Of a DNA stretch of 25,423 bases, positions 1,132 through 19,896 are shown one piece after another; position 1 is the stretch's first letter, and every line of letters starts with the position of its first letter. The stretch is from positions 1 to 25,423 of the forward strand of contig CAWCBP010000005.1 in assembly GCA_963793865.1 (NCBI GenBank), in the 5' to 3' direction. Source of the DNA: an uncultured delta proteobacterium (lineage in GTDB: Bacteria > Desulfobacterota > WTBG01). The notes under the pieces were generated by a model. The model searched no databases. It was given only the letters and a program-made list of their open reading frames with translations, and was not told the origin of the DNA. A program made the translations under genes and the position numbers.

Positions 1132-1268
1132 AAAATTTATTGTCTTGACGTGAATCGAGATTCATTTCTCTCGTTAGATAATATTATTCAGCAAAAGGAT
1201 ACTATGCAAGGATTATAATCAATAATACCGACGGCAAAGATAAAGGATATACCATCATGGGAACATCA
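1132..1268 (+). repeat. Diverged direct-repeat copy of the hcp promoter, RBS and 5' end (partner copy 22341-22479)
   Basis: Collinear shared blocks: TCTTGAC-TGAATC-AG, ATATTATTC, an identical 19-mer CAAGGATTATAATCAATAA (1207-1225 = 22417-22435), AGATAAAGGA and ATGGGAACATCA (1257-1268 = 22468-22479). Confidence 0.85.
1144..1159 (+). promoter_or_regulatory. Crp/Fnr-type (HcpR-like) box with a downstream -10 candidate (TATTAT 1182-1187)
   Basis: CTTGA-CGTGAA-TCGAG matches the box upstream of hcp (CTTGA-CTTGAA-TCAAG) at 14 of 16 positions and lies in a homologous flanking context. Confidence 0.6.
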
Positions 1269-1568: not shown

Positions 1569-2564
1569 GTGAAAAAATTCTTTGAGGTGCATGACCGTTT
1601 CTTCCGTATTCCCTTCATGGTAGCAGCGGGTACGGCTCTGCTTGCAACTATTATTCATGGGTGCGGAATGGGCAAAAACCTGACCATGGTTGTGCAGGAG
1701 TTCCCCCGGGCTTCTACCTGCGGGCACTGCCACATTGATATTTTCAACGAATGGTCGGCATCACCTCACGCTGAGGCGTATACGAACCCGCGATACCGTG
1801 AAGCCACCGACGAATATCGATTTACCGAATGTCTTGGTTGTCACACCCCGGAACCGGCAGTGAGCAATATCACACCTTCACATCGCGCAATCTACCGGGA
1901 TGAGGGAGTGACGTGCATATCCTGTCACCTCGAAGAAGGGAAGCTGTCCGGACCATTATCCCCCACCGGGATGGTGACACCGCATCCTGTGGGGGTGGAT
2001 GCAGATCAGTATCGTGACAGTCGCTTCTGTGGTCGCTGCCATGAAGGAACGTTCGCTGAGTGGGGCACGGTTACAATGAAAGATAAGCGAACCTGCCAGC
2101 AGTGCCATATGCCGGAGCAAATACGCAAGATAACCCAGCCGGCGGGAACACTCTCCAGGTTTCTCGTCTCCTTTGAAAAGAATGTTGTACAAAAGCGCCA
2201 CACCTTTGCCGCTATTCCGGGCGAGCTCGAGATCAAACCCTATTCGCTAGAGATACGGTATCATAAAGAAAAAGCGACGATTACCGCAACCAATAATCTG
2301 CCGCATTCTCTTCCCGCCGGTGACTTCGGCATACGGATTAATGTGCTCAGTGTCTCAATAGTTGATGCAAAAGGGGATCATACCGCTATTGCTGAAAGGG
2401 AGCTCATCAAGGATCTGGGAAGTGCCATTCCACCGCAATCATCAGTTGAATGGGAAGTTGCTATCCCCCCGGAAGCGCGGGAGATTTGTGTGAGGATGAC
2501 CCGCAGGGGGTATGAAAATATTGATACGCACGAATTAATGCAGACAGTGATCCTTTTACCATGA
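1569..2564 (+). CDS. Pentaheme cytochrome c (c554/c552-like), exported, possibly a lipoprotein
   Basis: Five CxxCH motifs (CGHCH, CLGCH, CISCH, CGRCH, CQQCH), c554-type EWSASPHA context, and a hydrophobic N-terminus ending in IHG-C (imperfect lipobox). GTG start with GGAG/AGGA upstream; ATGA overlap with the next gene. Confidence 0.85.
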   Translation: MKKFFEVHDRFFRIPFMVAAGTALLATIIHGCGMGKNLTMVVQEFPRASTCGHCHIDIFNEWSASPHAEAYTNPRYREATDEYRFTECLGCHTPEPAVSNITPSHRAIYRDEGVTCISCHLEEGKLSGPLSPTGMVTPHPVGVDADQYRDSRFCGRCHEGTFAEWGTVTMKDKRTCQQCHMPEQIRKITQPAGTLSRFLVSFEKNVVQKRHTFAAIPGELEIKPYSLEIRYHKEKATITATNNLPHSLPAGDFGIRINVLSVSIVDAKGDHTAIAERELIKDLGSAIPPQSSVEWEVAIPPEAREICVRMTRRGYENIDTHELMQTVILLP

Positions 2565-4537
2565 AGAGTTTGTTTCGCCGCTTTTCTCCACTCGCCATTG
2601 CTTTCCATTGGTGCCATGGGATTCCCTATGTGGTGCTTTTTACCACCGGGACAATCATTTGTTTACAGCGGATGCTTGCCCGGGAAATCATAGAGCACGC
2701 GGTGCTGTCCCTGGTTCATCGGGTTGCAGGCATCGTACTGGTGGCAGTCCTGGCACAGCTTGCTCTTCTGCTCTTATATTCGAGAGGCCTCACGTCTTGC
2801 CTGCGGACACTTCGTGATGTGGCGGCCTGGAGAGCGCGCGACCTGATCTGGTTTTTGAAAATCCCGCTCAATGCTGTTTTCCCGGGTTTCAGCCTCCCCC
2901 CGGCGGGACGGTTCAACCCGGGGCAAAAGCTGAATATTCTGGCTGTTCTGATACTGCTGGGCGGGTTCAGTGTCTCCGGAATTTTCATGATGATCATTCC
3001 CGGTGCCCTGGGAGCCTGGGTTATTCACGCACTGCTTTTTGTGCCCGCAATCGCACTTTTCATGCTCCACCTTTTCTTTTCTCTCATCAATCCGCCAACC
3101 CGGAAGGCCTTAGGGTGCATCTTTACGGGCTATGTTTCTTTCGACTACATTGCATCCCACCATCCGCTCATGGTGCGGGGGGGAAGGGCGCGCTCTCATG
3201 GCTCGCACATATCCTGGCTTTCTGCAGTAACCGTGCTCATCCTCTTCATGCTTTTTGTGAGCGGGGCGGTGTGGACATACGGTTTTGAACAATTCAACAA
3301 CCGCATTCTCACCCTGTGGAAAAACCGTGGTACGGAAATAATATTGCCCGGAGGACTGTGCACCAGTCATGCTGATGATCCTCAAGCACACCGCTGCAGG
3401 TCCTGTCACACGCTCTTTACTTCGCTCCCCTCAGCTGCCTGCCTGTCCTGTCACCTTGATATTGTTCTGGTCATGAGTGAGCGCTCGGGTTTCCACGGCA
3501 CACTTAATGACGAATGCAGGGTGTGTCATGCTGATCATGCAGGCAGAACCGGTGACATAAGGCGGCTCGACTCGGAGCGGTTCAACCACAATCTTGCGCG
3601 TTATCCCCTCGACGGGAAACACCGCGAACTGTCCTGCGCTGCGTGTCACGGCTCTGGCGGAGGAGATGGCATCAATGAGCGCGCACGTTATATCAACCTG
3701 TGCTTTGAAGCATGCACCGATTGCCACCAGGATCCACACGGGGACCAGTTCCTCCAGACCTGTGAGCAATGTCATTCTGTCAACGGCTGGAAAGATCGGT
3801 GGCTGGTCGATGCACACGGCGGCGAAACATCATACCCTCTCCTGGGGAAACACGCTGCGGTTGAATGCGTCGAGTGTCATCCCTTGCCCGCTCCCGGAGC
3901 TGCCTTCGCTGAAGCGCGTTTTACCGGCATAGCAACAAGCTGCGAGGGGTGTCATGACGATCCCCATCGGGCGGAATTCGAGGCTGCCTGCGCAACGTGC
4001 CATACGGAAGCGGACTGGAAAGGACCGGGTCTTATTTTCACGCACGCCAGAAATAGCAGCTTCAGCATCGATGCCATTCACGGCGGCCTTCCCTGTTCCT
4101 CCTGTCACCCCGGTGACACAACACCGCAATACCGCCCTCTCTCGAAGACCTGTGAAGGATGCCATCGGGATGCAGAGATGGAGTTGCAGGGAGTTGTGCC
4201 CGCATTTGCCGGAAGATCTGATCCACATGCAAACCGCGTTGCATGCACCGAGTGTCACCGGACAGATGTTGCCTCCCCCTCACCTGCAGACTATGCCCGT
4301 GCATGCGGGGCCTGTCACAACCACCATTACGAAAAGCTTTTTTATGATTGGATGAAATCGCTCTATGAACGCGAAGTGCGGGCTGCGAAAATAGCGCAGG
4401 AATTGCGTAAGCGCAATCTCCCGGCGGCGGAGATGTTCGAAGCCAAGATGAGGGAGGCCAAGGCTGTTGGGTTGCACAATGTTTTACTTGCCCGAATGAT
4501 GTGGGATGAGATTCTGGCTTTGCCTTCCGATTTGTGA
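2561..4537 (+). CDS. Cytochrome b (FdnI/formate dehydrogenase gamma-like) fused to a 13-heme cytochrome c domain
   Basis: N-terminal TM helices with His ligands (FHW, LVHRVAG, IHALLFVPAIALFMLH) and the GRFNPGQK signature. An extra TM helix follows, then 13 CxxCH motifs with repeated YPLxGKH...CxxCH...CxxCHxDPH...CxxCH units. Confidence 0.85.
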   Translation: MKSLFRRFSPLAIAFHWCHGIPYVVLFTTGTIICLQRMLAREIIEHAVLSLVHRVAGIVLVAVLAQLALLLLYSRGLTSCLRTLRDVAAWRARDLIWFLKIPLNAVFPGFSLPPAGRFNPGQKLNILAVLILLGGFSVSGIFMMIIPGALGAWVIHALLFVPAIALFMLHLFFSLINPPTRKALGCIFTGYVSFDYIASHHPLMVRGGRARSHGSHISWLSAVTVLILFMLFVSGAVWTYGFEQFNNRILTLWKNRGTEIILPGGLCTSHADDPQAHRCRSCHTLFTSLPSAACLSCHLDIVLVMSERSGFHGTLNDECRVCHADHAGRTGDIRRLDSERFNHNLARYPLDGKHRELSCAACHGSGGGDGINERARYINLCFEACTDCHQDPHGDQFLQTCEQCHSVNGWKDRWLVDAHGGETSYPLLGKHAAVECVECHPLPAPGAAFAEARFTGIATSCEGCHDDPHRAEFEAACATCHTEADWKGPGLIFTHARNSSFSIDAIHGGLPCSSCHPGDTTPQYRPLSKTCEGCHRDAEMELQGVVPAFAGRSDPHANRVACTECHRTDVASPSPADYARACGACHNHHYEKLFYDWMKSLYEREVRAAKIAQELRKRNLPAAEMFEAKMREAKAVGLHNVLLARMMWDEILALPSDL

Positions 4538-4682
4538 TGTGAACCCGCCCGATTTTCAGGTGGCAAAGAGAATTGGTACATGGTACAAAGTACGGCAGAG
4601 GCGCCGGTAACCATTCGGCCTGTTTGCCCTCGGGGCGGAAATGATTGAAAAGGAAAGGCCACTCTTTGTCTGAGGCGGGACA

Positions 4683-6071
4683 GTGAGTAAAAAAATACTA
4701 TTTATCAACCCCGTAACCAGAGAGCAGGGAAGTCTGGTTACCGACAGGGCAACCCGTTTTCCTCCCCTTGGCCTTGTTCTTCTGGCGGCCTTGACTCCTC
4801 CTGATTGGGATGTTGAGCTCATCGATGAGAACTTCGATTCATTTAGTTTCCGGAATGCTGATCTTATTGCACTTTCAGCGATGACAGCGACCGTGAACAG
4901 GGCTTACGAAATAGCGTCCTTATATAAAAAAGAGGGGATTCCTGTGGTTTTGGGCGGTATCCATGCATCTATGAGACCTGATGAGGCCCTTTGCTATGTT
5001 GACAGCATCGTGGTCGGTGAGGGGGAGCCTGTGTGGCGGGAGTTGTTACACGACGCTCAGGCAGGAAAACTGAAAAAACTCTATAGAGGCACGAGGGCAT
5101 CAATGGACGACATTCCATTCCCCCGGAGGGATTTGCTCTCCCCCGGCTATCGTATGGGTTCCATCCAAACCGCACGGGGTTGCCCCTTCGGTTGTGAATT
5201 CTGTTCGGTAACCCTTTTCAATGGAGGAACCTATCGCTCCCGGCCAATCATGCAAGTAGTTGAAGAAATGAGAACCATCACCCAGAAGGTCGTTTTCTTT
5301 TTAGATGACAATATTATCGGACCGGATGCGCGATCACGAGCCCGCGCCGGCCTGCTTTTTGATGCCATAACGCAAAGCAGGATCAATAAGTTATGGCTGG
5401 GTCAGGCTACTGTTGACTTTGCCGACGATGAAAAACTGGTGCGGAAGGCTTATGAAAGCGGATGTCGCATTATCTTTATAGGATTTGAATCGATTAATGA
5501 AAAAAGTCTCAAAGAAATGAGAAAGCTGATGAACCTTGCCAAGGGTATTGAGCATTACGGAGAGTGCATCAAAAGGTTTCATGAGCAGGGAATTGCCGTG
5601 TGGGGCAATTTCATCCTTGGACATGACAGTGATGATCGTGCTGTCTTACAGAACACCAAGGAATTTATCATGAGAAGCGGAATTGATTTGATCAGTTTCT
5701 CCTGTCTCACGCCTCTTCCCGGAACGAGATTGTTTGAACGTCTCGACCGAGAAAAACGGATTATCTATCAAAACTATCCACACGATTGGAACCTGTATTC
5801 ATTCACCGATGTTGTTTTCAGACCGAAGCATATGACGCCGGCAGAGCTGGATTTGGGAATTAAGGAAGTAGCGGGCGGTATTTTTTCACCCTTCCAGCCG
5901 GAACGCACCCTGGTCAGATCACTGCGAGTGAACAAGAGCCTGACCTCTGCTCTCATGGCATATGCGATGAACCGGGCTTTTAAAAGAACAGCAAAGATGA
6001 TCATGGCACAGAAAGAAAAACGGTGGAGTTCCGGTTGTTCAGCACGTAAGGAGCCTGGCACAATTTCATGA
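4683..6071 (+). CDS. Cobalamin-binding radical SAM protein (class B)
   Basis: N-terminal B12-binding domain (FPPLGL, VVLGGIHAS, VVGEGE), TARGCPFGCEFC CxxxCxxC motif, FFLDDN, IGFES and TPLPGT. Confidence 0.9.
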   Translation: MSKKILFINPVTREQGSLVTDRATRFPPLGLVLLAALTPPDWDVELIDENFDSFSFRNADLIALSAMTATVNRAYEIASLYKKEGIPVVLGGIHASMRPDEALCYVDSIVVGEGEPVWRELLHDAQAGKLKKLYRGTRASMDDIPFPRRDLLSPGYRMGSIQTARGCPFGCEFCSVTLFNGGTYRSRPIMQVVEEMRTITQKVVFFLDDNIIGPDARSRARAGLLFDAITQSRINKLWLGQATVDFADDEKLVRKAYESGCRIIFIGFESINEKSLKEMRKLMNLAKGIEHYGECIKRFHEQGIAVWGNFILGHDSDDRAVLQNTKEFIMRSGIDLISFSCLTPLPGTRLFERLDREKRIIYQNYPHDWNLYSFTDVVFRPKHMTPAELDLGIKEVAGGIFSPFQPERTLVRSLRVNKSLTSALMAYAMNRAFKRTAKMIMAQKEKRWSSGCSARKEPGTIS

Positions 6072-7267
6072 AAAGGAAAATCTTACTCACCGGTGCCACA
6101 GGATTTGTAGGAAGCAATCTTTTAGCCGCCCTGCTTGATAAAGGCTTTGAGGTCATTTGCCTGATCAGAACCCGGAGGGGTGAGGGCCCCGGCAGCCGTC
6201 TATTCCGTTCTCTTGAAGGTTGTTTTTCCGGGAAGCGGCAGGTGAGGCATGCGCTGTCACAGGTTACCGTCATGCAGGGCGACATCACGAAGGAAAATCT
6301 GGGTGTAGAACCGAGTGATTATCGTATGCTTACAAAGCAAATCAGCAGTGTTTTTCACTGCGCCGCTTCAACTGAGTTTCACCCCCTCCCTTCCCGGGAA
6401 CTATGGGGGTGCAACGTTCAAGGCATGGAAAATATAATACGCCTCGCCCTGGAAGGATCGAGTATTAAGGATTTCCATTATATTAGTACGGCGTATGTTG
6501 CCGGAACCAGGGATGGTGTCATTTTTGAAGATGAACTCGACACCGGCCAGAAGTTTAATAATGAATATGAAGAGAGCAAATTTATGGCGGAGACGATTCT
6601 CAATCGATACAGGAAAGACTCCGACGTAAAGATAACCATCTACCGGCCAAGTATCATTGTCGGTCACTCATGCACGGGAAAAACCACACTCTTTAACGGC
6701 ATGTATCTTTTTTTACGCTTATTGTACCTGCTTAAAAAGCGTTATCAGACGGGCAGCAGTGCGGGAAAGACCGTAATTCCCCTGCGCGTTGTGGGAGGTC
6801 CCCAAACAACCAAAAATTTTGTTCCTATTGATTATGTGATCCGTATGGTCATGAAAATATTTGTGGACCCCCACGCCTGGGGAAAAACCTATCACCTCAT
6901 CAATACTACTCCACCCACCCTTGATCACATCAAGGTGGTCATGGAAGAGATCTTAGCCGTTGAGGGGATACAGTTTGTGAACCGGGAAGCCTTTGATCTT
7001 TCGCAGACCTCCCGGATGGAACAATGGTTCGCCAGAGAAACAGCGAGCTATAGTTCATACATGCTCAAGGAGCCCATCTTTGACGACAGGTTGGCCGGGA
7101 AACTGCGCAGCGAAGAATGGGGCAGCACCACTGTGCTTCTCGACCGGGAAGCCCTGGTGAGACTCTTTGCCTATGCAATTGACTCTCACTGGGGTAAGAG
7201 AGTGAACGGGCAATTCGATGCGATGCAGATGGAGAGAACAGTCTCTGCCCGTGCCCACAATGATTAG
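6068..7267 (+). CDS. Extended SDR of the fatty acyl-CoA / thioester reductase (R-domain) type
   Basis: ILLTGATGFVG Rossmann motif, HCAAS, YISTAYVAG, catalytic YEESK and YRPSIIVG. ATGA overlap with the upstream gene. Confidence 0.85.
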   Translation: MKRKILLTGATGFVGSNLLAALLDKGFEVICLIRTRRGEGPGSRLFRSLEGCFSGKRQVRHALSQVTVMQGDITKENLGVEPSDYRMLTKQISSVFHCAASTEFHPLPSRELWGCNVQGMENIIRLALEGSSIKDFHYISTAYVAGTRDGVIFEDELDTGQKFNNEYEESKFMAETILNRYRKDSDVKITIYRPSIIVGHSCTGKTTLFNGMYLFLRLLYLLKKRYQTGSSAGKTVIPLRVVGGPQTTKNFVPIDYVIRMVMKIFVDPHAWGKTYHLINTTPPTLDHIKVVMEEILAVEGIQFVNREAFDLSQTSRMEQWFARETASYSSYMLKEPIFDDRLAGKLRSEEWGSTTVLLDREALVRLFAYAIDSHWGKRVNGQFDAMQMERTVSARAHND

Positions 7268-7299
7268 TTCAGCAGGGATGCGATGGAGGAAAAGGGTCG

Positions 7300-7680
7300 A
7301 TGGATGAAGCACACGGCAGCCTTGTTGAGCGATACTTTGAGCAATTTCTTCCACAGGTCATCGGCAAGTCAATTTTTGCAGATCTTGATAATCTGAGTGT
7401 TGTGGTACGATTTTTTATTACAGACGGCGAACGCGGATGGACGATTAGCCTGGAGAAGGGGCAACTGATCCGGATTGAGCGGGGCTCCGCCCCGGCACAC
7501 ACCTTTTCCTACAATCTTGACGCACAGACGCTGCTCCAGGTTGTTTCGGGAACCGTGTCTCCCCAAAAGGCATTCTTTACGGGAAAAGTGAAGATACAGG
7601 GAGACACGCTCAAAGGGCTTAAACTCGCTATGATATTTGACCGGTTTATTAGGGCCTATCCATTCACGTGTGCTCTTTGA
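7300..7680 (+). CDS. SCP2 sterol/lipid-carrier domain protein
   Basis: 126 aa with the C-terminal SCP2 signature G-x-x-SPQKAFFTGKVKIQGD. Confidence 0.8.
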   Translation: MDEAHGSLVERYFEQFLPQVIGKSIFADLDNLSVVVRFFITDGERGWTISLEKGQLIRIERGSAPAHTFSYNLDAQTLLQVVSGTVSPQKAFFTGKVKIQGDTLKGLKLAMIFDRFIRAYPFTCAL

Positions 7681-7720
7681 GCACATGTCACTGTGCGGTG
7701 ATCCATTGGTACCTGATAGC

Positions 7721-8434
7721 ATGGCAATGGTTATCGAGGAAAATGTTTCTTTTATCTCGGATGGGCTCGCATTAGAGGGCGTCCTGAGTTATGACCAAGA
7801 GCTCTCTCACGCTCCCGGAGTCATTCTGTGTCCGCCTCACCCCCATTTGGGGGGAGACATGAATAATAATGTCATCATGGCAGTTCAGAATGCCCTGTCC
7901 CGCGCTGGTGTCATAAGCCTGCGATTCAACTACCGTGGCGTGGGCAACAGTCAAAGAGCCGGGGTTGATGAAAAAGAGGATCTTAAAGCCTTTTGGGAAA
8001 ACTCCTGGGCACCGGATGATGAAGCGAAAGAACAGGATGTGTTGAGTGCTATTAATTTTCTGCGGGGAATACAGGGATTAATTCATGATCAGGTTTTCCT
8101 GGTAGGTTATTCCTTCGGGTCGTATCTTGCTCTGAGAGCTGCAGAAAAGTGTCCAATGGTAAAAGCACTGGTATTAATATCACCCACTGTCCATTTCCAT
8201 GACTTCACCTATCTCAATTATTCCTCCATTAACAAGCTTGTTGTTAGCAGCAATAATGATTTTTCCTGCCCACTGGAAGAACTGATGCGCGTGTATGATG
8301 GTTTTTCCTCTCCTAAAGGCTTATATCTTGTTGATGATGCAGACCATTTCTTCATTGGCTGTGAAGACACGGTGAGTAAAAGGATTGAACAGTTTATAGT
8401 GGAGCAGCATGCGGGGGAAACGGCCAATGGATAA
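7721..8434 (+). CDS. Alpha/beta-fold hydrolase (COG2945-like)
   Basis: CPPHPHLGGDMNN, LRFNYRGVG, nucleophile GYSFG, NDF and ADHFF. The start is uncertain (in-frame ATGs at 7685, 7721 and 7727). Confidence 0.85.
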   Translation: MAMVIEENVSFISDGLALEGVLSYDQELSHAPGVILCPPHPHLGGDMNNNVIMAVQNALSRAGVISLRFNYRGVGNSQRAGVDEKEDLKAFWENSWAPDDEAKEQDVLSAINFLRGIQGLIHDQVFLVGYSFGSYLALRAAEKCPMVKALVLISPTVHFHDFTYLNYSSINKLVVSSNNDFSCPLEELMRVYDGFSSPKGLYLVDDADHFFIGCEDTVSKRIEQFIVEQHAGETANG

Positions 8435-10625
8435 ATATATTGCGTGGATTCTGGCACATCCCATGAGTATGATGGGATACTTGTTCTGTATCGCCGCCGT
8501 ATTTATCTATTTTGGTTTTTCAGTAAACATGGATAACAGCATGGAAGTGTGGTTTCCCTCTTCTGATGTTGCAGTGGATCAGTATCAGCGCTTCTTGCAG
8601 GATTTTGGAAACGACGAGTTCATCCTTATTGCCGCTGAGCACAAGGCGGGTTTTACCTACCAGGAGTTGCTTCTTGATCAAAAACTGACTCAGGCGCTTG
8701 AGGAGGTAAACGGCATAGCGTCGGTTTTCAGCCTCTCTAACATTTTTAACCAGGCTTCACTGGATTTTAACGCGTTTAGGGATGGTATGCTTGCTTCATC
8801 GCTCTTTCGCCGAGCACTCATCTCAGACGATGGGCGGGTAACCGCTCTCATCATGCAGTTATCTCCAGAAGGTCTGCGAAACCGGCAAGGAGTCGTGGAC
8901 AGGGTAAGAGAGCTTATGGTACGTGAAGTGCCAATAAGTGAAAAACTCTTTATTGCGGGCCCTCCCATATTCAATACAGAGCTGGACCGAATGTCACGAA
9001 GCGCGGCGGTATACTACTTCCCACTTTTATTTTGCGTTATCGTGTCTATTCTTTTCTTCCTTTTCCGCTCGCTGGTGGGGGTGTTTCTTCCAACTTTCAT
9101 AATAATCCTTAGTCTTTTATTTACGCTGGGCTGGATGGGACTCTGGGGCGGATCCATCAATATAGTGACTGTTGCTCTTTTCCCACTGATGATGGTTTTA
9201 TCACTCTCCTATAGTATCTATTCGTTGAGTTCCTACAATAATTACATGAGGGCGGAACCGGTTACCCCCTCCGAGGACCGCAAAAAAGAGATTATTGCGC
9301 ACTCCTGTAAGGAGGTGCGTTTCCCCATTTTTTTATGTGCCTTGACAACAGCCGTTGGTTTCGATGCTTTGATCGTGAGCGAGGTCACTCCCGTAAATGA
9401 TTTCGGTTTTTTCTCGACACTGGGCATTTCTTCTGCCTTCCTGCTGATCATGTTTTTCTTACCCCCCGCCTTGCTTTTGTTCCCCGCACCTTCCCGACCG
9501 TTCGAAGGCAATAAAGCAAATAAAAGACTTCATCACTTGTTTCTATACCTTAGTTTTTTCGTGGTAAACAAAAGGTATCACATACTTGTTTTTTGTCTTA
9601 TTCTCTTTTTCGCCTCTCTCAGTGGCATTGCCCGATTACAGGTAGAAACCAATGCTTTAAAATTTTTCCCTCAAAACAGTCAGATGGTGCAGACCTACAC
9701 CTTTATTGAAGACCGCCTCACCGGTCTTTCGCCCATAGAAATTGTAATTGAACCAAAAAATGTGCAGATAACAAATCTGCTTCCTCCTCGCTCCACTTTA
9801 ACGGAAGTCAGACTGGTTCAGGATTTTCTTTCCCGTCAAAAAGAGATTGTTACCTCGAAATCTATAGCAAACATTTTGGAAGATGACATCATGCAGGGTG
9901 TGTCACGACAGCCCTTGCGCCATCACGCACCCAGCGTGAACGATGCTGCCGTCGAAGGATATTTTAACCTGCAACGACAGGCGGTTCGCGTTTCAGCTAA
10001 GGCCAGGACGTTAGGATCATCAGAATACCGGATGTTGATTGAAAAGATTACCCACTACTTGAATACATGCTTGAGGGGAGATCTAAGGGCCTACACGACG
10101 GGAATCGTACCGATCATTTTCGAGATGCAGGATAAGTTGCTTGCATATCTGATCGAGAGCTTTTCTATTACCTTTGTAATTATCGGGCTCATCTTTCTCT
10201 TTCTCACCCGGTCATTCAAAAACATGTTAATCAGCATGATTCCCAATGTTCTCCCCATTGCGATGGTTCTGGGATTCATGGGCTGGGCCGGCATTAAATT
10301 AGATGTAGCCACAATCATGATTGCGAGTATTGCTTTAGGCATAGCTGTTGATGATACAATCCATTTTCTTTCAGTTTTTAAAAAGATGCCGTCTGGCCAG
10401 GGAGGATATGATCAACGCATTCATTCAACCCTTTCATCGGTTGGAGAGGCAATGATTTTTGCCTCGGTGGTCAACATGTGTGGATTTGCTGTCCTCTGTT
10501 TTTCCGATTTCGGACCGATGATCAACTTCGGATTGTTATCGAGCGTAACGATATTTTTTGCGCTGATATGTGAACTGATAATAATGCCTGCATGCCTGGC
10601 CGCATTTAATGTAAGACTTCGCTGA
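8427..10625 (+). CDS. MMPL/RND-family membrane exporter
   Basis: Two repeats of one TM helix, a periplasmic domain and five TM helices; ALTTAVGF and GIAVDDTIHF motifs. The ATG at 8427 follows GGGGGA and overlaps the hydrolase stop. Confidence 0.9.
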   Translation: MDKYIAWILAHPMSMMGYLFCIAAVFIYFGFSVNMDNSMEVWFPSSDVAVDQYQRFLQDFGNDEFILIAAEHKAGFTYQELLLDQKLTQALEEVNGIASVFSLSNIFNQASLDFNAFRDGMLASSLFRRALISDDGRVTALIMQLSPEGLRNRQGVVDRVRELMVREVPISEKLFIAGPPIFNTELDRMSRSAAVYYFPLLFCVIVSILFFLFRSLVGVFLPTFIIILSLLFTLGWMGLWGGSINIVTVALFPLMMVLSLSYSIYSLSSYNNYMRAEPVTPSEDRKKEIIAHSCKEVRFPIFLCALTTAVGFDALIVSEVTPVNDFGFFSTLGISSAFLLIMFFLPPALLLFPAPSRPFEGNKANKRLHHLFLYLSFFVVNKRYHILVFCLILFFASLSGIARLQVETNALKFFPQNSQMVQTYTFIEDRLTGLSPIEIVIEPKNVQITNLLPPRSTLTEVRLVQDFLSRQKEIVTSKSIANILEDDIMQGVSRQPLRHHAPSVNDAAVEGYFNLQRQAVRVSAKARTLGSSEYRMLIEKITHYLNTCLRGDLRAYTTGIVPIIFEMQDKLLAYLIESFSITFVIIGLIFLFLTRSFKNMLISMIPNVLPIAMVLGFMGWAGIKLDVATIMIASIALGIAVDDTIHFLSVFKKMPSGQGGYDQRIHSTLSSVGEAMIFASVVNMCGFAVLCFSDFGPMINFGLLSSVTIFFALICELIIMPACLAAFNVRLR

Positions 10626-10638
10626 TAAAGGAGCGAGT

Positions 10639-11757
10639 ATGTTTGCGCAATGGTTCGCACAGCCCCCTGATGAATGGCTTCGACATGTAATAGCCATCCA
10701 TTTTCATCCTGAGACGGGAACACCGTACTGGATTGAAAAGGCGCGCGAGCTGGGCGTTAATGCGCCATGCGAAATCAAGACCCTTGAAGACCTTAGCATC
10801 TTCGGTCCGATGGATGAGATGGCAATGACCACCCGTCCCATAGAGCATTTTATACCCCTTGAGTATTCCACGGAAAAGAGGCGTTTCATTTTAGGCGATA
10901 CGGCAGGCACTACCGGTACACCCAAGGTGACTGCTTACCGGGAAGACGAATTTTATCTCGCGTTTGTGGAATACTTTGCCTTTGTTGCTGAGGCAATGAA
11001 TTTTCCGAAAGGCGCCAACTGGCTGTGGATAGGGCCGAGTGGTCCGCACATCATAGGCAAGGCGGCGAGAATGGTCTGCTTGAGGATGGAAAGCATGGAT
11101 CCTTTTTCCATTGACTTTGATCCCCGGTGGATAAAAAAGCTTGCTCCCGGATCCATGGGATGGAACCGATACCTTCAACATATAGAGGATCAGGCGCTGC
11201 ACATTTTACAGACCCAAAAAATTGAAGTGTTATTTTCAACCCCTCCGGTGATTAAACGGCTGGTATCGGTACTGGATGATACTCAGAAAGCACGAATTAA
11301 AGGCGTTCACTACGGGGGAATGCCGCTTGATGCTGAATTCTACCAGGAATTGAGAACCGTGCACTTTCCCAACGCGGTTCATATTTCGGGCTATGGAAAT
11401 ACGCTTTTCGGAGTATGTTTAGAGGTCGGCAACAGCGCGATCGGGCCAACACACTATTTTTCACCCGGACCCCGGCTGATTTTGAATGTTGTTCCCCGCG
11501 TTGAGGGCCCTCACGACCGCGGGTCGGGGCATGAGCAACCCGGCCGCAAAGTGGACTATGGTGAGCGGGGACAGGTGATGTTCCACCGGCTTGATGAAAG
11601 CTTTCTCATTATCAATATGTTCGAGCGGGATGAGGCGGTGAGAATCCCCCCGAGTTCGCGTGCCCTGCAGATGGGATTGTCGCTCGATGGCGTGAGTGAT
11701 CCGCAGCCTATTGCCGATACGGCCGGTAACAGCAAACCTGCCCTGGGGCTTTATTAA
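10639..11757 (+). CDS. EhpF-like atypical adenylating enzyme (ANL superfamily, PaaK-related)
   Basis: Motifs collinear with Pantoea EhpF as I recall its sequence: HFHPETGTPYW, TAGTTGTPK (P-loop), PSGPHIIG, FSIDFDPRWIKK, STPPV, GYGNT, VDYGERG, ERDEAVRIP and C-terminal GLY. Strong RBS AAGGAG. Confidence 0.75.
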   Translation: MFAQWFAQPPDEWLRHVIAIHFHPETGTPYWIEKARELGVNAPCEIKTLEDLSIFGPMDEMAMTTRPIEHFIPLEYSTEKRRFILGDTAGTTGTPKVTAYREDEFYLAFVEYFAFVAEAMNFPKGANWLWIGPSGPHIIGKAARMVCLRMESMDPFSIDFDPRWIKKLAPGSMGWNRYLQHIEDQALHILQTQKIEVLFSTPPVIKRLVSVLDDTQKARIKGVHYGGMPLDAEFYQELRTVHFPNAVHISGYGNTLFGVCLEVGNSAIGPTHYFSPGPRLILNVVPRVEGPHDRGSGHEQPGRKVDYGERGQVMFHRLDESFLIINMFERDEAVRIPPSSRALQMGLSLDGVSDPQPIADTAGNSKPALGLY

Positions 11758-11818
11758 AAATATGTGCGGTTGTCATGTTCCTGCGCACAACTAACTTCGC
11801 ACGAGGGAGAAGACTTTC

Positions 11819-13021
11819 ATGGATACGCGGTTGAAAAAAATTGAACTGCTGGCTCCTGCGGGCAGGTGGGAGGTTTTAGACGTAGTGCTGGAAAGGGGCG
11901 CGGATGCCGTGTATCTCGCGGGGAAGGAATATAACATGCGCAGGCATCGCTCCGATTTTAATTTCAGCCGGGATGAAATCGCGCGCGCCGCAGACAAGGT
12001 TCACGCCGCCGGCGCGAAAATCTATATTACCGTCAACAGCCTGCTCAGCGAGCGAGAGCTTGATGAAATTGGAGAATACCTGGCCTTCCTGGAGTCGGTG
12101 GCGGTTGACGCTCTTATTGTCCAGGATCTTGGACTTATTCAGCTCATCACTCGGTCAGGGTTCAACCTGCCCCTCCATGCAAGCACCATGATGAACATCC
12201 ACAGTGCGGAGGGAGCGCGTGCCTGTGCCGATTCGGGCATCAGCCGCATCATTTGCTCCAGGGACGTCGCCCTGCACCAGGTCAAGCAGATGCGGGATGA
12301 CAGCGGACTCGAGATGGAATACTTTGTCCATGGAGATATGTGTATCGCGCAGAGCGGCCAGTGTTATATGAGCGGCATCCTTTTTGGCAGGAGCAGCAAC
12401 CGGGGTAAATGCATGAAGCCGTGTCGCTGGCCCTATCAGATGGTAAACCAGGGAGGAGGTGTGCTGGAGACCAAGATGGATGGTTCGTATCTCCTCGCGA
12501 CAAAGGACATCTGCCTCCTGGAATTCATACCGGAACTCATTGAAGCGGGGGTACATGCTCTGAAGATCGAAGGCAGAATGCGCGCGCCGGCCTTTCTGGC
12601 CGGTGTTGTCGAGGTGTACCGCAGGACGATTGACCAGTACTGCAGTGATCCCTATGGCTTTATCAACGATATCCGTGCATACGATGAGCTCTACCGCAAT
12701 CGGGTAAGAGATTTCTCAGCATGCTGTGCTTTGCGCAAACCTGACGCCGGCCTGGTGGGATCATCCGGAGAGAGAGAGCCCTTTTTTTTGAGTACCGCGG
12801 TGAGGGAAAAGGAAATAGACCTGTTGCATCCCGAGGAAGTCTTCAATGATACAGGAGATGTGCAGACGAGAAGGACTGATCAGGTGAACCGGGTGCTTCT
12901 TGCCGTCCATGCGGGGTCTCCTGAGGGTGCCCGGGAAGCCCTGGAGCGGGGGGCAGAATGGATTTACATTGGCGGGGAGGTTTTCCGTCTCGAGGACAAA
13001 GATGGGGGCTGTCTTCCTTAA
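11819..13021 (+). CDS. U32-family [4Fe-4S] protein, N-terminal part of a probable single gene 11819-13866
   Basis: ELLAPAG, ADAVY, LHASTM, FVHGDMC-x6-C-x15-C-x3-C and LKIEGRMR. The last ~40 aa begin a second U32 barrel (ALERGAEWIYIGGEVF). Confidence 0.85.
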   Translation: MDTRLKKIELLAPAGRWEVLDVVLERGADAVYLAGKEYNMRRHRSDFNFSRDEIARAADKVHAAGAKIYITVNSLLSERELDEIGEYLAFLESVAVDALIVQDLGLIQLITRSGFNLPLHASTMMNIHSAEGARACADSGISRIICSRDVALHQVKQMRDDSGLEMEYFVHGDMCIAQSGQCYMSGILFGRSSNRGKCMKPCRWPYQMVNQGGGVLETKMDGSYLLATKDICLLEFIPELIEAGVHALKIEGRMRAPAFLAGVVEVYRRTIDQYCSDPYGFINDIRAYDELYRNRVRDFSACCALRKPDAGLVGSSGEREPFFLSTAVREKEIDLLHPEEVFNDTGDVQTRRTDQVNRVLLAVHAGSPEGAREALERGAEWIYIGGEVFRLEDKDGGCLP

Positions 13022-13866
13022 GGGACATCATCTCCCGGGCACGCGACATGGGGAAAAATGTCGGACTGCTGACCCCACGGGTTACCCTTGCGCGCCAGCT
13101 GGATGAACTTAAGTGGTTTTTGGATCAGGCCGGTTTAGTGGCTCCGGATGCCGTGTTGGTCCATAACCTTGGAAGCCTGCACCTGGTCAGAACACAAAGC
13201 GATATTCCCATGTATGCTGATTTTTCTTTCAATGTGTTAAATCGCAGCTCCATTGAGTATCTCAGCCGCCTGGGGGCACGTCAGGTAACGCTTTCCCTCG
13301 AAGCATCTTTTAAAACCCTTAAGGATTTAGCCGGCAGCGCCTGTGTGCCTCTTGAGTGTATCATCCACGGCCCCATCCCCGGAATGTATTTGGAACACTG
13401 CCTGATGAGCATGAGCCTGATGAATACCACGTCTCACGATCCCTGTCGAGGTCCCTGCCGTTACCTTCAGTGCGGCCTTTCAGATACACTGCAACAAATC
13501 CACCCCATCGAAGTGGATCAATACTGCCGCACTCATCTTTTGTTCTCAAAGGATCTGGCCTGCCTCAATTACGTTGCAGATTTTGTGAATACCGGTGTTC
13601 GCACATTACGAATCGAGGGGCAATACTATGAGAAGGAGTTGGTGGGAGCGCTCACCGCGCTCTATGCGGATCTCATTGCAAACCCGTTTCAGGGCATTAA
13701 CGCTGCACGTTTAAAACGTCTCATCGCCATGAGTCCGCGGGGCTTCAGCCTGGGGGCATATCCGAAAGGCATATGCGAAGATGCCTCCCAGCCGCATACT
13801 GGACCCTCCCCGGATGCGCAGCCCGTCCTCCGGGACTCTTCCTTGAGGCACTCTTCGGCTCACTGA
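12958..13866 (+). CDS. U32-family protein, C-terminal part (second U32 domain after the frameshift at ~12981-12984)
   Basis: VLVHNLG, ADFSFNVLN, VTLSLE, IHGPIPGMYLEHC...CRGPC, LFSKDLACL and LRIEG. It lacks its own U32 N-terminal strands, which are in the upstream frame. Confidence 0.75.
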   Translation: MDLHWRGGFPSRGQRWGLSSLRDIISRARDMGKNVGLLTPRVTLARQLDELKWFLDQAGLVAPDAVLVHNLGSLHLVRTQSDIPMYADFSFNVLNRSSIEYLSRLGARQVTLSLEASFKTLKDLAGSACVPLECIIHGPIPGMYLEHCLMSMSLMNTTSHDPCRGPCRYLQCGLSDTLQQIHPIEVDQYCRTHLLFSKDLACLNYVADFVNTGVRTLRIEGQYYEKELVGALTALYADLIANPFQGINAARLKRLIAMSPRGFSLGAYPKGICEDASQPHTGPSPDAQPVLRDSSLRHSSAH

Positions 13867-13884
13867 TCCTCGGGAGCAGCTTAT

Positions 13885-15189
13885 ATGTCGCAAACCTATC
13901 TCGGACCGGAAGCAATTCTCGAGAAGAAGAAGAGATACCTCATTCCCTGTGTCTACCATTTTTACCGAAACCCGCCTCAGATCGTGAGAGGGGAAATGGA
14001 ATATCTGTATGATCACCAGGGGAAGAGGTACCTCGATTTTTACGCAGGGGTTGCGGTGGTCAATGCAGGACACTGCCATCCCGAAATAACAGATAAAATA
14101 TGCAAACAGGTCAAAACGCTGCAGCACACCACGGCCATATACCTCACCCAGCCCATGGTGGAGCTTGCAGAAAGATTGTCATCGATTACTCCCGGAGACT
14201 TATCCAGCACCTTCTTCTGCAACAGCGGTTCCGAGGCAAACGAGGGAGCGCTTATGCTTGCCAGGCTTTTCACCGGAAGAGAAGGGTTTGCCGCGCTTGA
14301 AAACTCTCTTCACGGGAGAACCTATTTGACCATGAGCGTGACGGGCATTCCCATGTGGAGAACAGATCACAGCTTGTCATCCCGGGTTGTGTTTATCCCC
14401 CCACCCTACTGTTACCGTTGCTCATTCCAGTTGAGCTACCCGAGTTGTGATCTCAGATGTGCCTATGAGATTGAAAAGGCAATAGACAGCATAGGATCGC
14501 ACCGGATTGCTGCTTTTATTGCAGAACCCATTCAGGGCAATGGAGGCATCATTGTTCCACCTCCCGATTATTTTAAGGTGGCAAAGGACATCCTGGATCG
14601 TCATCGGATTCTCTTCATTGCCGACGAAGTACAAACGGGCTTTGGACGGACCGGAACCATGTTTGCCGTCGAGCAATGGGGCGTTGTGCCCTCCATTCTC
14701 ACCGTCGCTAAGGCCCTGGCAAATGGTGTGCCGGTGGGGGCATTTATCACCAATCCGGATATTGCCTCCTCTTATACTAAACCGGGTGCCTCAACCCTGG
14801 GGGGGAACCCTGTAACTGCAGTAGCTGCACTTGCAACACTAGAAGTCCATCAGAAATATAACCTGCGAGGCAATGCTGTAAAGATGGGAGAACATTTCAT
14901 GGAATGTCTCTTAGCCTTACAGGAGAAACATGCTCTTATCGGGGAAGTGCGGGGAAGGGGTTTAATGCTGGGGGCAGAACTGGTCAGGGATAATAAGACT
15001 CCCGCTGCTCAAGAGACAGACACTATTCTGGAATACCTGAAAGATCACGGGGTTCTTATTGGTAAAACCGGGGCAGGTAGAAATGTTCTTACTTTTCAAC
15101 CACCCTTAATTATCTCAAAAGATCAGATTGATCAGGTCGTAACAACACTGGATCGCGCCCTGGCTCAGCCCATGGCTAAAAGCGCGTGA
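13885..15189 (+). CDS. Class III PLP-dependent aminotransferase (AGXT2/GabT-like)
   Basis: YLDFYAGVAVVNAGHCHP, NSGSEANE, LHGRT, IAEPIQGNGG, FIADEVQTGFGRTG, PLP lysine in AKALANG, and STLGGNP. Confidence 0.92.
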   Translation: MSQTYLGPEAILEKKKRYLIPCVYHFYRNPPQIVRGEMEYLYDHQGKRYLDFYAGVAVVNAGHCHPEITDKICKQVKTLQHTTAIYLTQPMVELAERLSSITPGDLSSTFFCNSGSEANEGALMLARLFTGREGFAALENSLHGRTYLTMSVTGIPMWRTDHSLSSRVVFIPPPYCYRCSFQLSYPSCDLRCAYEIEKAIDSIGSHRIAAFIAEPIQGNGGIIVPPPDYFKVAKDILDRHRILFIADEVQTGFGRTGTMFAVEQWGVVPSILTVAKALANGVPVGAFITNPDIASSYTKPGASTLGGNPVTAVAALATLEVHQKYNLRGNAVKMGEHFMECLLALQEKHALIGEVRGRGLMLGAELVRDNKTPAAQETDTILEYLKDHGVLIGKTGAGRNVLTFQPPLIISKDQIDQVVTTLDRALAQPMAKSA

Positions 15190-15318
15190 AGAGGATGAGG
15201 CTTTTCCTTGTAATGTGCAATATCACCGGATTATCTCACCTGTAAAAATGCAAGGCAAACCTCCGAAGCAGGCGTGAGGAAGTTCCAACCATCCCCATGT
15301 CAAGCGGAAAACAAATTC

Positions 15319-16725
15319 ATGAAGATATTGCTTGTTTATCCTGCACCGGAACGATTTCCCATCAGCGTCTATCAATATCGTTATGTTTCGGTTCCCGCCA
15401 TATTGACGCACATGGCCGCCCTGACTCCTCCTGAACACAGCATCAGGCTCGTCGATATGATGGTTGGTGACCCTGTGCCATATAACGAGGCGTTCGATCT
15501 CGTTGGTATCACAGTTCGAACCCCTATGGCACCTGTTGCCTATCAGATTGCGGACCGGTTCCGCGCACAGGGAATCACGGTTGTGCTGGGAGGAGCTCAC
15601 GTTTCCGTGCTGCCGGAAGAAGGAAAGACACATGCAGACTCGGTAATTATTGGTGAAGCAGAGGACACCTGGAGTTTGCTCCTGCATGATCTTGAAACTC
15701 AGCAGATGGCAGACTATTACGTTTGCGGACCTCATGAAACCAACATGCTAAAAGGGCGGGTGAGGCATCTACCGCAGCGCCCGAACTTGAAAGGTCTGCC
15801 TGCTCCACGCACTGATCTGCTTGATCGCGACAGGTACATCATGGATACTTTTATGACCACCCGCGGCTGTGTTTTTGGCTGTCGTTTTTGTAATGTGCAG
15901 CCACTGTTTGGATCGCACATACGTCACCGTCCAATTCCAGAGGTAATAAAAGAGCTGATTGATGCACGTCGACTTTTGCTTTCCGTGGATGACAATGTAT
16001 TCGGAGCACCGGGGGATGCAGACTATTACCTGCAGCTCTATGGGGCGATGAAGGACCTCAGACCCGCCAGGTATTGGGCCGGACAAGGTTCGCTTGCGGT
16101 GGCATCCTATCCCCGGGCTGACAAACTGCTTGAAACAGCCTCCAGAAGCGGTTTGTCGCTTTTAACCGCAGGTATTGAGGCGTTGGATTGCACGGGGCTT
16201 GAAGAAAGCGGTGCTTACCGGAAGCTCGGGCTTGTGCATGCAGAAAACATGTCTGCCTGGCAGACCGGTGAAAGCATCAAGAAGATTCAAAGTTATGGTA
16301 TCAATGTGCTCGGGTATTTCATCATAGGATTCCGGCAGGATACCATGAGTTCATTTGACCGCGTATTGGAGTTCTGCGATCACCATTCGATCATACCGGT
16401 ACCCATTCTTCTCCATCCTCTACCCGGCACGGAACTCTATGATGAATATGTGCGGGAAGGTCTCATGCGGGACGGGGCCGACTGGGCCGATTTTGATGGG
16501 GCCCATTTAGTGCTTCTCCATCCGGCATTTGAGAAAACCGGCATTGAGACGGCCTACATAAAAAAAGTGATGGAAGCAAACAGTCTCGCGCGACGGACAA
16601 GACGGAACCTGCTGCGGCTTTTTGCGAATCCGCGAATCGACAGCGCCATAAACTTCTACAAAACCCAGCAGGTGATGCATCGGGGAATACGTGAGTACGT
16701 AAACTGCATGAACCATTCGGAGTGA
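15319..16725 (+). CDS. Second cobalamin-binding radical SAM protein
   Basis: MKILLVYP start (ATG 15319 preferred over GTG 15274), VVLGGAHVS, IGEAE, TTRGCVFGCRFC, VDDN and PLPGT. Confidence 0.9.
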   Translation: MKILLVYPAPERFPISVYQYRYVSVPAILTHMAALTPPEHSIRLVDMMVGDPVPYNEAFDLVGITVRTPMAPVAYQIADRFRAQGITVVLGGAHVSVLPEEGKTHADSVIIGEAEDTWSLLLHDLETQQMADYYVCGPHETNMLKGRVRHLPQRPNLKGLPAPRTDLLDRDRYIMDTFMTTRGCVFGCRFCNVQPLFGSHIRHRPIPEVIKELIDARRLLLSVDDNVFGAPGDADYYLQLYGAMKDLRPARYWAGQGSLAVASYPRADKLLETASRSGLSLLTAGIEALDCTGLEESGAYRKLGLVHAENMSAWQTGESIKKIQSYGINVLGYFIIGFRQDTMSSFDRVLEFCDHHSIIPVPILLHPLPGTELYDEYVREGLMRDGADWADFDGAHLVLLHPAFEKTGIETAYIKKVMEANSLARRTRRNLLRLFANPRIDSAINFYKTQQVMHRGIREYVNCMNHSE

Positions 16726-16891: not shown

Positions 16892-17440
16892 TTATAGCCA
16901 GAACTCGGGATATTTCCTCTTGGCGGGAATATTATTAACCAGGAGGGCTATAACCAGCATAATGGCGGCACCAGTTCCAACCGGCACAATCGTATACCAG
17001 TACCCAAGATCATGAATCTTATCGCTCCCGGTTACGGCTATCAGGGCGGTCGCCCCGCCGGGCGGATGCAGGGTCCTTGTGGCATGCATAACCGCAAGAG
17101 AAGTGGCAACAGCGAGAGCGGATGCCAACCACATCTGATCGTGAAAGAACTTTTGGGCAGTAACACCAATAAGGGCTGAGATAATGTGCCCGCCGAGGAG
17201 GTTCCTTGGCTGGGCCAGGGGACTTCTCACCACACCGTACAGTAAAACCGCTGAAGCCCCAAACGATCCTGTTATAAATAAGATATCACCATTATTAAAA
17301 AGATTATAATGAATCCATGCAACCACACCAATGCCGAGAAAAGCCCCGGTCCATGACCACAGAATCTCGGAGAGGCTTACCCCGGGGGGGCTCTTCGTGG
17401 TGCCCCGCATTTTGCTCAGGTAATGACGTAGTGTTTCCAT
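16892..17440 (-). CDS. HPP-family membrane protein (family includes nitrite transporters)
   Basis: SFGASAVLLYG..SPLAQPRN..GGH and TLHPPGGATAL motifs with several TM helices. ATG 17440; alternative TTG 17446. Confidence 0.92.
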   Translation of the reverse strand: METLRHYLSKMRGTTKSPPGVSLSEILWSWTGAFLGIGVVAWIHYNLFNNGDILFITGSFGASAVLLYGVVRSPLAQPRNLLGGHIISALIGVTAQKFFHDQMWLASALAVATSLAVMHATRTLHPPGGATALIAVTGSDKIHDLGYWYTIVPVGTGAAIMLVIALLVNNIPAKRKYPEFWL

Positions 17441-17487
17441 GACCAACCGGCGCTATCACCGCGCAGCATTGTTAACCGTTACCGGTT

Positions 17488-18102
17488 CTATCTCGATATT
17501 CTGCCGACCGGCATCTTCAGCAGATCACCCCTGGTGACTATTCCTTTCAAAACGGCAGCGCTATCAACGACAGGAATTCTATTAATCTTTTTTTCATGAA
17601 AGAGGGTGTTGATTTCAAAAACGGTGGCGTTTTCAATGACGGTAATGGCAGGCGCGGTCATAATATCGCGGGCTTTCTGAGCACGGATGGGCATGACAAG
17701 ACACCATTTATTCCTCAAACAGTTTGCAATCACCGCCATGAAATTTGTTGCACTGCCATCTCCCATGGTGCGGAGAAAGTCCTTTTCAGAAATAACACCG
17801 ACAACCCTTTTCCCTTCATCGACAATGGGTAACCCTGATATCCCCTTCTTACCCATCAGCTGCGCTACTTCTTCAAGTGAAGCAGCAGGGGTAACGGAAA
17901 CAACATTTACAGTCATAATGTCCTTTGCTTTAATTGACTCCACTACTCTCTGAAAGGCCTTGCGACAGGCAATGGTATAGATGTGCTTAAAATCTTCCGC
18001 TGTAATATCCAAATAGCCGGGTATTTCTTTCATTGCCCGATAAATATCATCATCCGACAGTACAATATCATTAAGCTTGGTATCATTGAGTAATTCGCCC
18101 AT
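17488..18102 (-). CDS. CBS-domain pair protein associated with the HPP gene
   Basis: Two CBS domains (AKDIMT...ISGLPIVD...VGVISEKD; ARDIMT...INRIPVVD...GIVTRGD) and an N-terminal YLDITAED motif. Directly upstream of the HPP gene on the same strand. Confidence 0.9.
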   Translation of the reverse strand: MGELLNDTKLNDIVLSDDDIYRAMKEIPGYLDITAEDFKHIYTIACRKAFQRVVESIKAKDIMTVNVVSVTPAASLEEVAQLMGKKGISGLPIVDEGKRVVGVISEKDFLRTMGDGSATNFMAVIANCLRNKWCLVMPIRAQKARDIMTAPAITVIENATVFEINTLFHEKKINRIPVVDSAAVLKGIVTRGDLLKMPVGRISR

Positions 18103-18269
18103 ACCCACATCCCGGACAATGGCATAGCGCGCGTTCGCTCGGTTTGCTCATTGCACCTCTGTTGAAATTAATGCATACAATATTCTGTTTTTTCTACCAA
18201 AGTGTTTTACCCATACGGGTAATGGAATTCACAAACTACTTTTATAATAACATGCATGATTTGCTTCAG

Positions 18270-18287
18270 ATATGATATAAGTCATAT
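18270..18287. promoter_or_regulatory. Crp/Fnr-type palindrome in the divergent CBS-HPP / Rieske intergenic region
   Basis: Perfect ATATGA-N6-TCATAT (TGA-N6-TCA core). A plus-strand TATAAA at 18309-18314 starts 30.5 nt from the box centre, close to the spacing at the other two boxes (30.5 and 31.5). Confidence 0.5.
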
Positions 18288-18356
18288 TTATAAGCGGTGG
18301 GTATGGTGTATAAAGAGATGAGAAGAAACGGCAGCAAAAGGAATAAAAATTAAAAC

Positions 18357-18812: not shown

Positions 18813-18820
18813 GAGACGTT

Positions 18821-19894: not shown

Positions 19895-19896
19895 GC

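Follow-up and report, generated by a model that had tools for sequence, protein, structure and literature searches.

The DNA analyzed here is a complete contig of 25,423 bases (C5, hereafter the window) from the 3.85-Mb, 14-contig assembly of an uncultured delta proteobacterium (genome G000). It holds the control region of hcp, the nitric oxide defence gene that encodes the hybrid cluster protein, and in addition a second, diverged version of that region. We refer to the promoter of hcp proper as copy B (22341-22479, + strand) and to the second version as copy A (1132-1268, + strand); the latter lies in front of a 15-kb operon of cytochrome and biosynthetic genes. An earlier note, written from the letters alone, had read copy A as a promoter captured by this operon, which may have placed it under the control of HcpR and thereby tied its product to nitrosative stress. 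Here, we report that copy A is genuinely paralogous to the hcp control region, though diverged, and that the genome holds three such copies in all. As to how it came to lie before the operon, the evidence leaves about even chances that a block of genes was inserted behind an older hcp promoter copy that is now eroding.

The locus and its two hcp control regions

Genes of the window were assigned with Pfam and NCBIfam. The first of them, unk341 (90-1115, - strand), is a divergent 341-aa gene without a match in either collection; its Atlas features resemble clusters of the methionine synthase family and the MetE C-terminus (score 0.97), which is to be taken as a lead only. Copy A is followed on the + strand by a 12-gene, 15-kb operon (1569-16725) that begins with a multihaem cytochrome c and a cytochrome b561-multihaem fusion. 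It continues with two B12-radical SAM enzymes, an acyl reductase-like protein, SCP2, an alpha/beta hydrolase, MMPL, an AMP-binding-like protein, a U32 pair and a class III aminotransferase. Genes for an HPP membrane protein and a CBS-pair protein (16892-18108, - strand) form the far end of what is described below as an extra block. Beyond it lie a Rieske-cytochrome b-multihaem cytochrome operon (18357-21507, + strand), hcpR (21551-22240, - strand), whose product is a Crp/Fnr family regulator with a cNMP-binding domain and HTH_Crp_2, and hcp itself (22468-24111, + strand; Prismane family, Pfam E 6.5e-164). Two genes 3' of hcp (24271-25364; 154 and 213 aa) have no Pfam or NCBIfam match, and the window's final 123 bases share 80% identity with sequence next to an hcpR-hcp duplicate elsewhere in the genome (see below).

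The collinear match that the earlier note had seen between 1132-1268 and 22341-22479, with about two single-base indels, is borne out by global alignment, in which 103 of 139 columns are identical (74%) and two single-base indels occur. The two intergenic regions reach a local alignment score of 63, whereas 300 shuffles averaged 10.7 (sd 1.4) and reached 16 at most, and blastn within the own genome pairs copy A with the hcp promoter at E 2.5e-16. By alignment, copy A comprises a paralogous hcp core promoter, the 5' leader, a Shine-Dalgarno remnant, and the ATG with three further codons. All of the shared elements listed in the note were found, namely the Crp/Fnr-type box, an identical 19-mer, AGATAAAGGA and ATGGGAACATCA. 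In copy B, the box occupies 22354-22367, the -10 hexamer TATATT 22390-22395, the 19-mer 22417-22435 and the Shine-Dalgarno sequence 22449-22460, before the ATG at 22468; ATGGGAACATCA is common to 1257-1268 in copy A and 22468-22479 at the start of hcp. By our estimate, a run of 19 identical bases arises in a 139-column, 74% identical alignment with a chance of about 0.1, and is thus not very unlikely.

Similarity ends right after the fourth hcp codon, again as the note had it. Of six comparisons of 1269-1568 with the genome's three hcp genes, made for either strand, five stayed within the range of shuffles (11-13, with shuffle maxima of 14-16), and the sixth gave a marginal match on the opposite strand (18, shuffle maximum 15). 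No further hcp fragment was found in the window. The idea that an hcp paralogue had been replaced at this site therefore loses ground, there being no convincing residual hcp coding sequence beyond the four codons; an entirely lost paralogue is still conceivable. A DNA search with 1100-1600 in the genomes of 60 relatives returned matches in the own genome alone. In a metagenome scan, an 18-base piece of the shared 19-mer matched 102 stretches, only three of which came from true relatives (L140, L193 and L229); all three are hcpR-hcp loci, and none is of the copy A type.

Homologous 5' intergenic regions before unrelated genes of one genome have been described as promoter reuse and proposed as a route to rewired regulation (Nijveen, Matus-Garcia and van Passel, 2012; PMC3575422). 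Copy A and the hcp promoter fit this description, being significantly alike 5' intergenic regions that precede unrelated genes, hcp and a multihaem cytochrome c. Particular to them is that copy A is old and diverged (74%) and includes four codons of the source gene, and that the operon seemingly arrived behind the copy and not the copy before the operon.

The third copy is found on contig C8 of the same genome (C8:493547-493687) and is 74% identical to copy A and about 87-90% identical to the hcp copy. It sits in a 2.65-kb duplicate of hcpR-hcp (C8:491845-494486; about 7850-10490 of locus L001) with 91% DNA identity overall. The duplicated hcpR is 98.7% identical to that of the window as protein and about 99% as DNA (6 mismatches in about 690 nt). 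Where the intergenic region begins, identity falls abruptly, to about 90% for the remainder. The duplicated hcp carries about 30 mostly single-base indels, with nine TGA and one TAA codons in its best frame. It is either a pseudogene in decay, next to a regulator that is maintained or has been converted, or the result of poor polishing of the sequence. A further hcp gene, intact and 70% identical (C8 185652-187283), is without a similar promoter.

Erosion of copy A

As a reference for the elements of copy A, 29 hcp upstream regions were taken from 60 related genomes; one further locus was without upstream sequence and two others were incomplete. Of these 29 regions, 22 have a box TTGA[CT]-N4-NTCAA at a distance of 83-143 nt upstream of the ATG, usually followed by [G/T]G and, about 20 nt further, by a TAnnnT hexamer. 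The comparison yields a well-supported HcpR box for this bacterial group. What we take to be the recognition helix of the regulator, its positions being assigned by alignment to CRP, reads GTIPETLSRILARM and contains the pattern Pro-Glu...Arg. This pattern has been linked to T at motif position 3, and the HcpR motif predicted for delta-proteobacteria other than Desulfovibrio is wyTTGACnnnnGTCAArw (Rodionov et al., 2005; PMC1274295; here and below, as given in passages of that paper). It thus appears that a cognate regulator with a helix of the TTGAC type is present, encoded by two hcpR genes. The locus resembles the HcpR1-type regulon of the same paper in that hcpR is divergent from hcp and the hcp box, TTGACTTGAATCAA, fits the FNR-like motif, as do 22 of the 29 upstream regions from relatives. 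The box of copy A does not follow this type, departing from it in the right arm (TCGA) and in the flank.

The degenerate box of copy A (1145-1158, + strand) reads TTGAC-GTGA-ATCGA, with GA next to it where hcp has GG. Scored with a position weight matrix made from the 22 relatives' hcp boxes, it reaches 7.9 bits, compared with 26.1 bits for both hcp copies. All 22 relatives' boxes have TCAA in the right arm where copy A has TCGA, and the A>G change in this arm as well as the G>A change in the flank fall in columns that are invariant among them. The HcpR1-type consensus calls for both half-sites, TTGAC and GTCAA (or ATCAA); because one arm of the copy A box departs from it, copy A was not filed as an HcpR site. 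Boxes with one mismatch number 388 in the genome, compared with 291-313 in shuffled sequence, and as they are so common genome-wide, the copy A box alone says little.

Downstream of the box, promoter scan and inspection gave two -10 candidates within 1177-1187 (+ strand), GATAAT (1177-1182) and TATTAT (1182-1187). At the position that TATATT holds in hcp, copy A has AATATT. From the centre of the box to the hexamer there are 29.5 nt in hcp (TATATT), and 28.5 (AATATT) or 30.5 nt (TATTAT) in copy A. The 19-mer identical to the hcp leader follows at 1207-1225 (+ strand). It encloses a 10-bp perfect palindrome, GATTATAATC (1211-1220 and 22421-22430), in which TATAAT can be read on both strands, and the AAGGAWTA part at the 19-mer recurs in the corresponding hcp leaders from G001 and G031, so that this stretch may be a leader element or bind a second protein. 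The Shine-Dalgarno sequence (1238-1247, + strand) is eroded to AGATAAAGGA, the hcp counterpart being AAAGGAGG. A remnant frame of 22 codons (1257-1325, + strand) begins with the hcp codons M-G-T-S and is probably not a conserved gene. A conserved leader peptide at this place was considered and ruled out, since the frame is shifted five codons in by an insertion in strain X1 (described below). An open reading frame of 83 aa that overlaps copy A on the minus strand (1202-1453) has no Pfam match.

The earlier note had held that the functional blocks of copy A were kept while the spacers drifted. This is a fair description of the 19-mer and of the start codon region. It fails for the box, in which 2 of 14 core positions and the flanking G have changed, and for the Shine-Dalgarno sequence, in which GGAGG has become GGATA. 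Six hcp-type promoters (the two hcp copies of the own genome, three from metagenome contigs and that of G001) share 76 invariant columns, and copy A deviates at 11 of them. Six of these 11 fall in the elements just described, three in the box, one in the -10 (its first T) and two in the Shine-Dalgarno sequence. Copy A is thus eroding, having lost two invariant box positions and its ribosome-binding site and keeping the four hcp codons as a relic.

Between copy A and the operon lies a stretch of 300 nt (1269-1568, + strand) that is non-homologous in comparisons with hcp and with the G001 spacer, and that would be leader if transcription starts in copy A. An Rfam scan of 1050-1650 gave no match at E up to 1, and the fold of the would-be leader (1194-1580) was no more stable than shuffles (z +0.55). 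No + strand terminator-like site was found between copy A and 1569. The non-homologous leader contains, at 1413-1427 of the minus strand, a weak hairpin with a T-run that resembles a terminator and could serve as a stop for antisense transcripts before unk341.

Two other public runs, X1 and X3, supplied Logan contigs that cover 957-1449 and 813-1789, respectively; these are single contigs of low depth. Both have the same arrangement as the window, including the junctions into both flanking genes, with 3-4% differences. X1 departs from the window sequence at 8 bases and by 1 insertion over copy A's 137 nt (about 6.6%). It has 1 change in the 159 coding bases of unk341 covered and 5 changes in 1269-1449; its divergence in copy A is at least equal to that of neighbouring non-coding DNA (2.8% and about 6%). 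The change 1180 A>T, present in X1 and X3, gives TATATT, and X1 also has a C inserted behind 1167 that alters the spacing of box and -10 by one base, so that this strain has both the 29.5-nt spacing and the TATATT of hcp. X1 shows a further change in the Shine-Dalgarno region (1243 A>C), and an additional C behind 1271 puts the 22-codon remnant out of frame. The sole other TATAAT (1535-1540) is destroyed in both strains by 1536 A>C. The 19-mer and the -10 region are kept across the three strains.

Origin of the arrangement

The genome of another member of the genus, G001, has on its contig C36 the succession unk341 (89% aa identity), a 432-nt spacer, the Rieske-cytochrome b-multihaem operon (79-83% aa identity), hcpR and hcp. 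The window keeps this gene order, plus about 17 kb between unk341 and the Rieske operon. Over about 109 nt, from near the hcpR start through the hcp box, the G001 spacer is homologous to hcpR-hcp intergenic regions (scores of 24-25; 200 shuffles, 9.7 +/- 1.2, maximum 14). It contains two boxes, the hcp-side one being intact, TTGACGCGGATCAAGG, and having the G after TTGAC in common with copy A. In G001, an hcp-type control region thus faces the Rieske-cytochrome b-multihaem operon, and the homology of the spacer means that such a region beside unk341 is not special to the own genome. Neither 1269-1568 nor 18109-18356 showed homology to the G001 spacer.

The first cytochrome gene of the 15-kb operon was found in none of 10 same-family genomes (59-94% complete), three of which belong to the same genus. 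Its nearest relatives are 44-49% identical and reside in metagenome-assembled genomes (MAGs) of Planctomycetota and in G040. The GC content of third codon positions (GC3) is 0.46-0.63 in the 14 genes of the block, 11 of which are at or below 0.55, and 0.56-0.66 in six flanking genes. On account of the G001 synteny, the absence from the 10 same-family genomes and the lower GC3, we read the block as inserted in the lineage of the window and not deleted in that of G001. Copy A and the copy in G001 would then be one and the same, an orthology judged by position and orientation.

On this basis, an hcp-type control region would already have stood beside unk341 in the genus ancestor, facing the Rieske-cytochrome b-multihaem operon. 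A compositionally different block of about 17 kb, made up of the 15-kb operon and the HPP/CBS genes, would later have been placed between the control region and the Rieske operon. The 15-kb operon would in this way have come to lie behind an old HcpR-type promoter by accident of insertion, and the promoter would not have been copied to the operon. Copy A would have been decaying since, in its box, ribosome-binding site and hcp codons, with a spacing of box and -10 that now varies among strains. It may still fire as the sole recognisable promoter before the operon, its HcpR dependence weakened or lost. Of the promoter capture suggested by the earlier note, there remain the true paralogous copy, its orientation into the operon, the lack of a + strand terminator-like site before 1569 and the two nearly identical hcpR genes; what finds no support is the direction of the event, as G001 already has an hcp-type control region beside the same neighbour gene. 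Taken as a whole, we give the insertion of the block behind an older, eroding hcp promoter copy about even chances of being right.

Several points weigh against this reconstruction. G001 is the one informative same-genus genome, since G002 and G003 (87% and 73% complete) are without an unk341 orthologue, and it is conceivable that the block was instead lost in G001. The overlap of copy A with the G001 spacer is confined to the box and an A-rich stretch, and aligning the two directly gives no significant score (13; shuffles 10.4 +/- 1.3). Copy A is also closer to the own hcp promoter (0.73) than the latter is to that of G001 (0.66), which suggests a better fit with a younger duplication or gene conversion than with a simple old copy. 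No flanking repeats, integrase or tRNA that would mark an insertion were found; neither were direct repeats around the 17-kb block nor an overlap of the contig ends, as expected of a circular element. With regard to erosion, copy A retains 65 of the 76 invariant columns. Only one of the 10 core positions of TTGAY-N4-RTCAA is changed in its box, a match that lies in the range of working Crp/Fnr sites of other bacteria, and HcpR may bind to it.

Related operons and control of the 15-kb operon

Operons related to that of the window occur in other genomes, in part with HcpR-type boxes. In G040 (locus L006, to which L011 is 100% identical), a perfect box, TTGACTTAAGTCAAGG (L011 598-611), is followed by TATTCT 29.5 nt from the box centre, exactly the distance found in hcp. 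The operon behind it encodes HPP (254 aa), a 92-aa open reading frame, MMPL, a 365-aa open reading frame and homologues of the window's two cytochromes, 45% and 39% identical to them. Its first gene, HPP, is 66% identical to the HPP of the window. In G027, which belongs to another family, a multihaem cytochrome-Rieske-cytochrome b operon has a perfect box about 250 nt upstream. In contigs of Planctomycetota MAGs (L009-L015), the biosynthetic genes recur with both cytochromes in another gene order: MMPL, AMP-binding-like, hydrolase, U32, U32 and aminotransferase, then cytochrome c, with cytochrome b-c last. This recurrence marks the cytochromes plus the biosynthesis genes as a conserved unit. 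No HcpR box was found by the strict pattern at L009, L010 or L012-L015, loci that do not reach the first gene of the cluster.

It is plausible, though less likely than not, that copy A is a working HcpR-dependent promoter of class II, with the 15-kb operon under nitric oxide (NO)/nitrite control and its product tied to nitrosative stress. In class II Crp/Fnr-activated promoters, exemplified by the FNR sites of Escherichia coli, the site is centred near -41.5. Copy B and the HPP operon of G040 are alike in this respect, as a box centre 29.5 nt before TAnnnT would place the box near -41.5. Copy A is unlike them, its spacer being one base shorter in the window strain and the homologous hexamer reading AATATT. 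Nevertheless, a -10 at 28.5-30.5 nt from the box centre is close to the 29.5 nt of hcp, nine of ten core positions of the box are kept, the orientation is right and no + strand terminator-like site was found before 1569. The perfect boxes before the related operon of G040 and before the multihaem cytochrome-Rieske-cytochrome b operon of G027 point in the same direction. Working HcpR control is made less probable by the right arm and flank of the box, which depart from all 22 relatives' boxes and from the GG of hcp, and by the abundance of one-mismatch boxes in the genome. In addition, the spacing of box and -10 differs by one base between strains, and class II activation usually tolerates such a change poorly. 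Copy A is also no better conserved between strains than nearby non-coding DNA. HcpR regulons of delta-proteobacteria are predicted to extend to cytochrome c-like genes, which favours control of the operon by HcpR, whereas no 15-kb biosynthetic operon appears among the targets in the passages seen (Rodionov et al., 2005; PMC1274295).

Alternatively, copy A could be an inert relic, the operon being transcribed from an unrecognised promoter in 1269-1568 or elsewhere, which we regard as possible but doubtful. Such a relic would account for the erosion of box, Shine-Dalgarno sequence and remnant frame together, for the unusual length of a 375-nt leader, and for the divergence of X1, which is at least as high in copy A as around it. 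On the other hand, the promoter scan found no + strand alternative after 1182, the TATAAT at 1535-1540 is lost in X1 and X3, and the 19-mer and -10 region persist in three strains.

A relic that has turned into an activator-independent sigma-70 promoter appears improbable. By this account, the box changes from TCAAGG to TCGAGA have created a -35 element 16 nt before GATAAT. The scan indeed scores TCGAGA-16-GATAAT (1155-1182) with 9 of 12 matches, TCGAGA agreeing with TTGACA at 4 of 6 positions, and in our reading both changes at invariant positions go towards the -35 consensus. However, 1178 A>G, 1180 A>T and the C behind 1167 destroy GATAAT and the spacing in X1, 1180 A>T weakens GATAAT in X3, and 9 of 12 matches arise by chance (2 in the region, compared with 1.1 +/- 0.9 in shuffles).

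Finally, an assembly chimera from reads joined across the repeated hcp promoter, a misassembly that the earlier note had named as fatal to its claim and that could be suspected because the window is a whole short contig (25.4 kb, of 14) with lower GC than the larger ones, is very unlikely, since the contigs of X1 and X3, from two other runs and 3-4% different, bridge copy A with the same junctions, and identity between the copies is as low as 74%, with no identical run longer than 19 bases.

If the block was inserted behind copy A as we propose, the Rieske operon was displaced from its former control region. In the AT-rich spacer between the CBS/HPP genes and the Rieske genes there is a candidate variant box, ATGAT-ATAA-GTCAT (18272-18285), with TATAAA (18309-18314) at class II distance. 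The same type, ATGA[CT]-N4-GTCAT, recurs as ATGACATAGGTCAT about 130 nt upstream of the intact hcp on contig C8 (185652-187283), and a second Crp/Fnr regulator may bind to it.

The comparison of relatives provides candidate members of an HcpR regulon, namely the Rieske-cytochrome b-multihaem operon, unk341 and the HPP operon. In G001, G041, G011, G056, G033 and G051, hcp and an orthologue or homologue of unk341 share a contig, 2-11 kb apart. One unk341 homologue of G051 has a perfect box 92 nt upstream.

A broader and rather doubtful interpretation is that the cytochrome pair, HPP and the lipid-like biosynthesis genes make up a module for NO/nitrite stress that came under HcpR on two occasions and in different ways. 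In G040, this would have occurred through a canonical box. Here, the module would have landed behind a pre-existing hcp promoter copy, and the displaced Rieske-cytochrome b-multihaem operon would have received from it the variant box (18272-18285). If this is true, cells would make the product of the 15-kb operon when under nitrosative stress. If copy A is still HcpR-responsive, nitrite or NO would offer a first physiological handle on an uncharacterised but conserved cytochrome-plus-biosynthesis cluster that also occurs in Planctomycetota. HcpR-responsive or not, the locus is a clear natural example of regulon rewiring, and it would illustrate a course of events that starts with the duplication of a control region, continues with the arrival of a block of foreign genes behind the copy, and leads to incipient decay of the former activator site.

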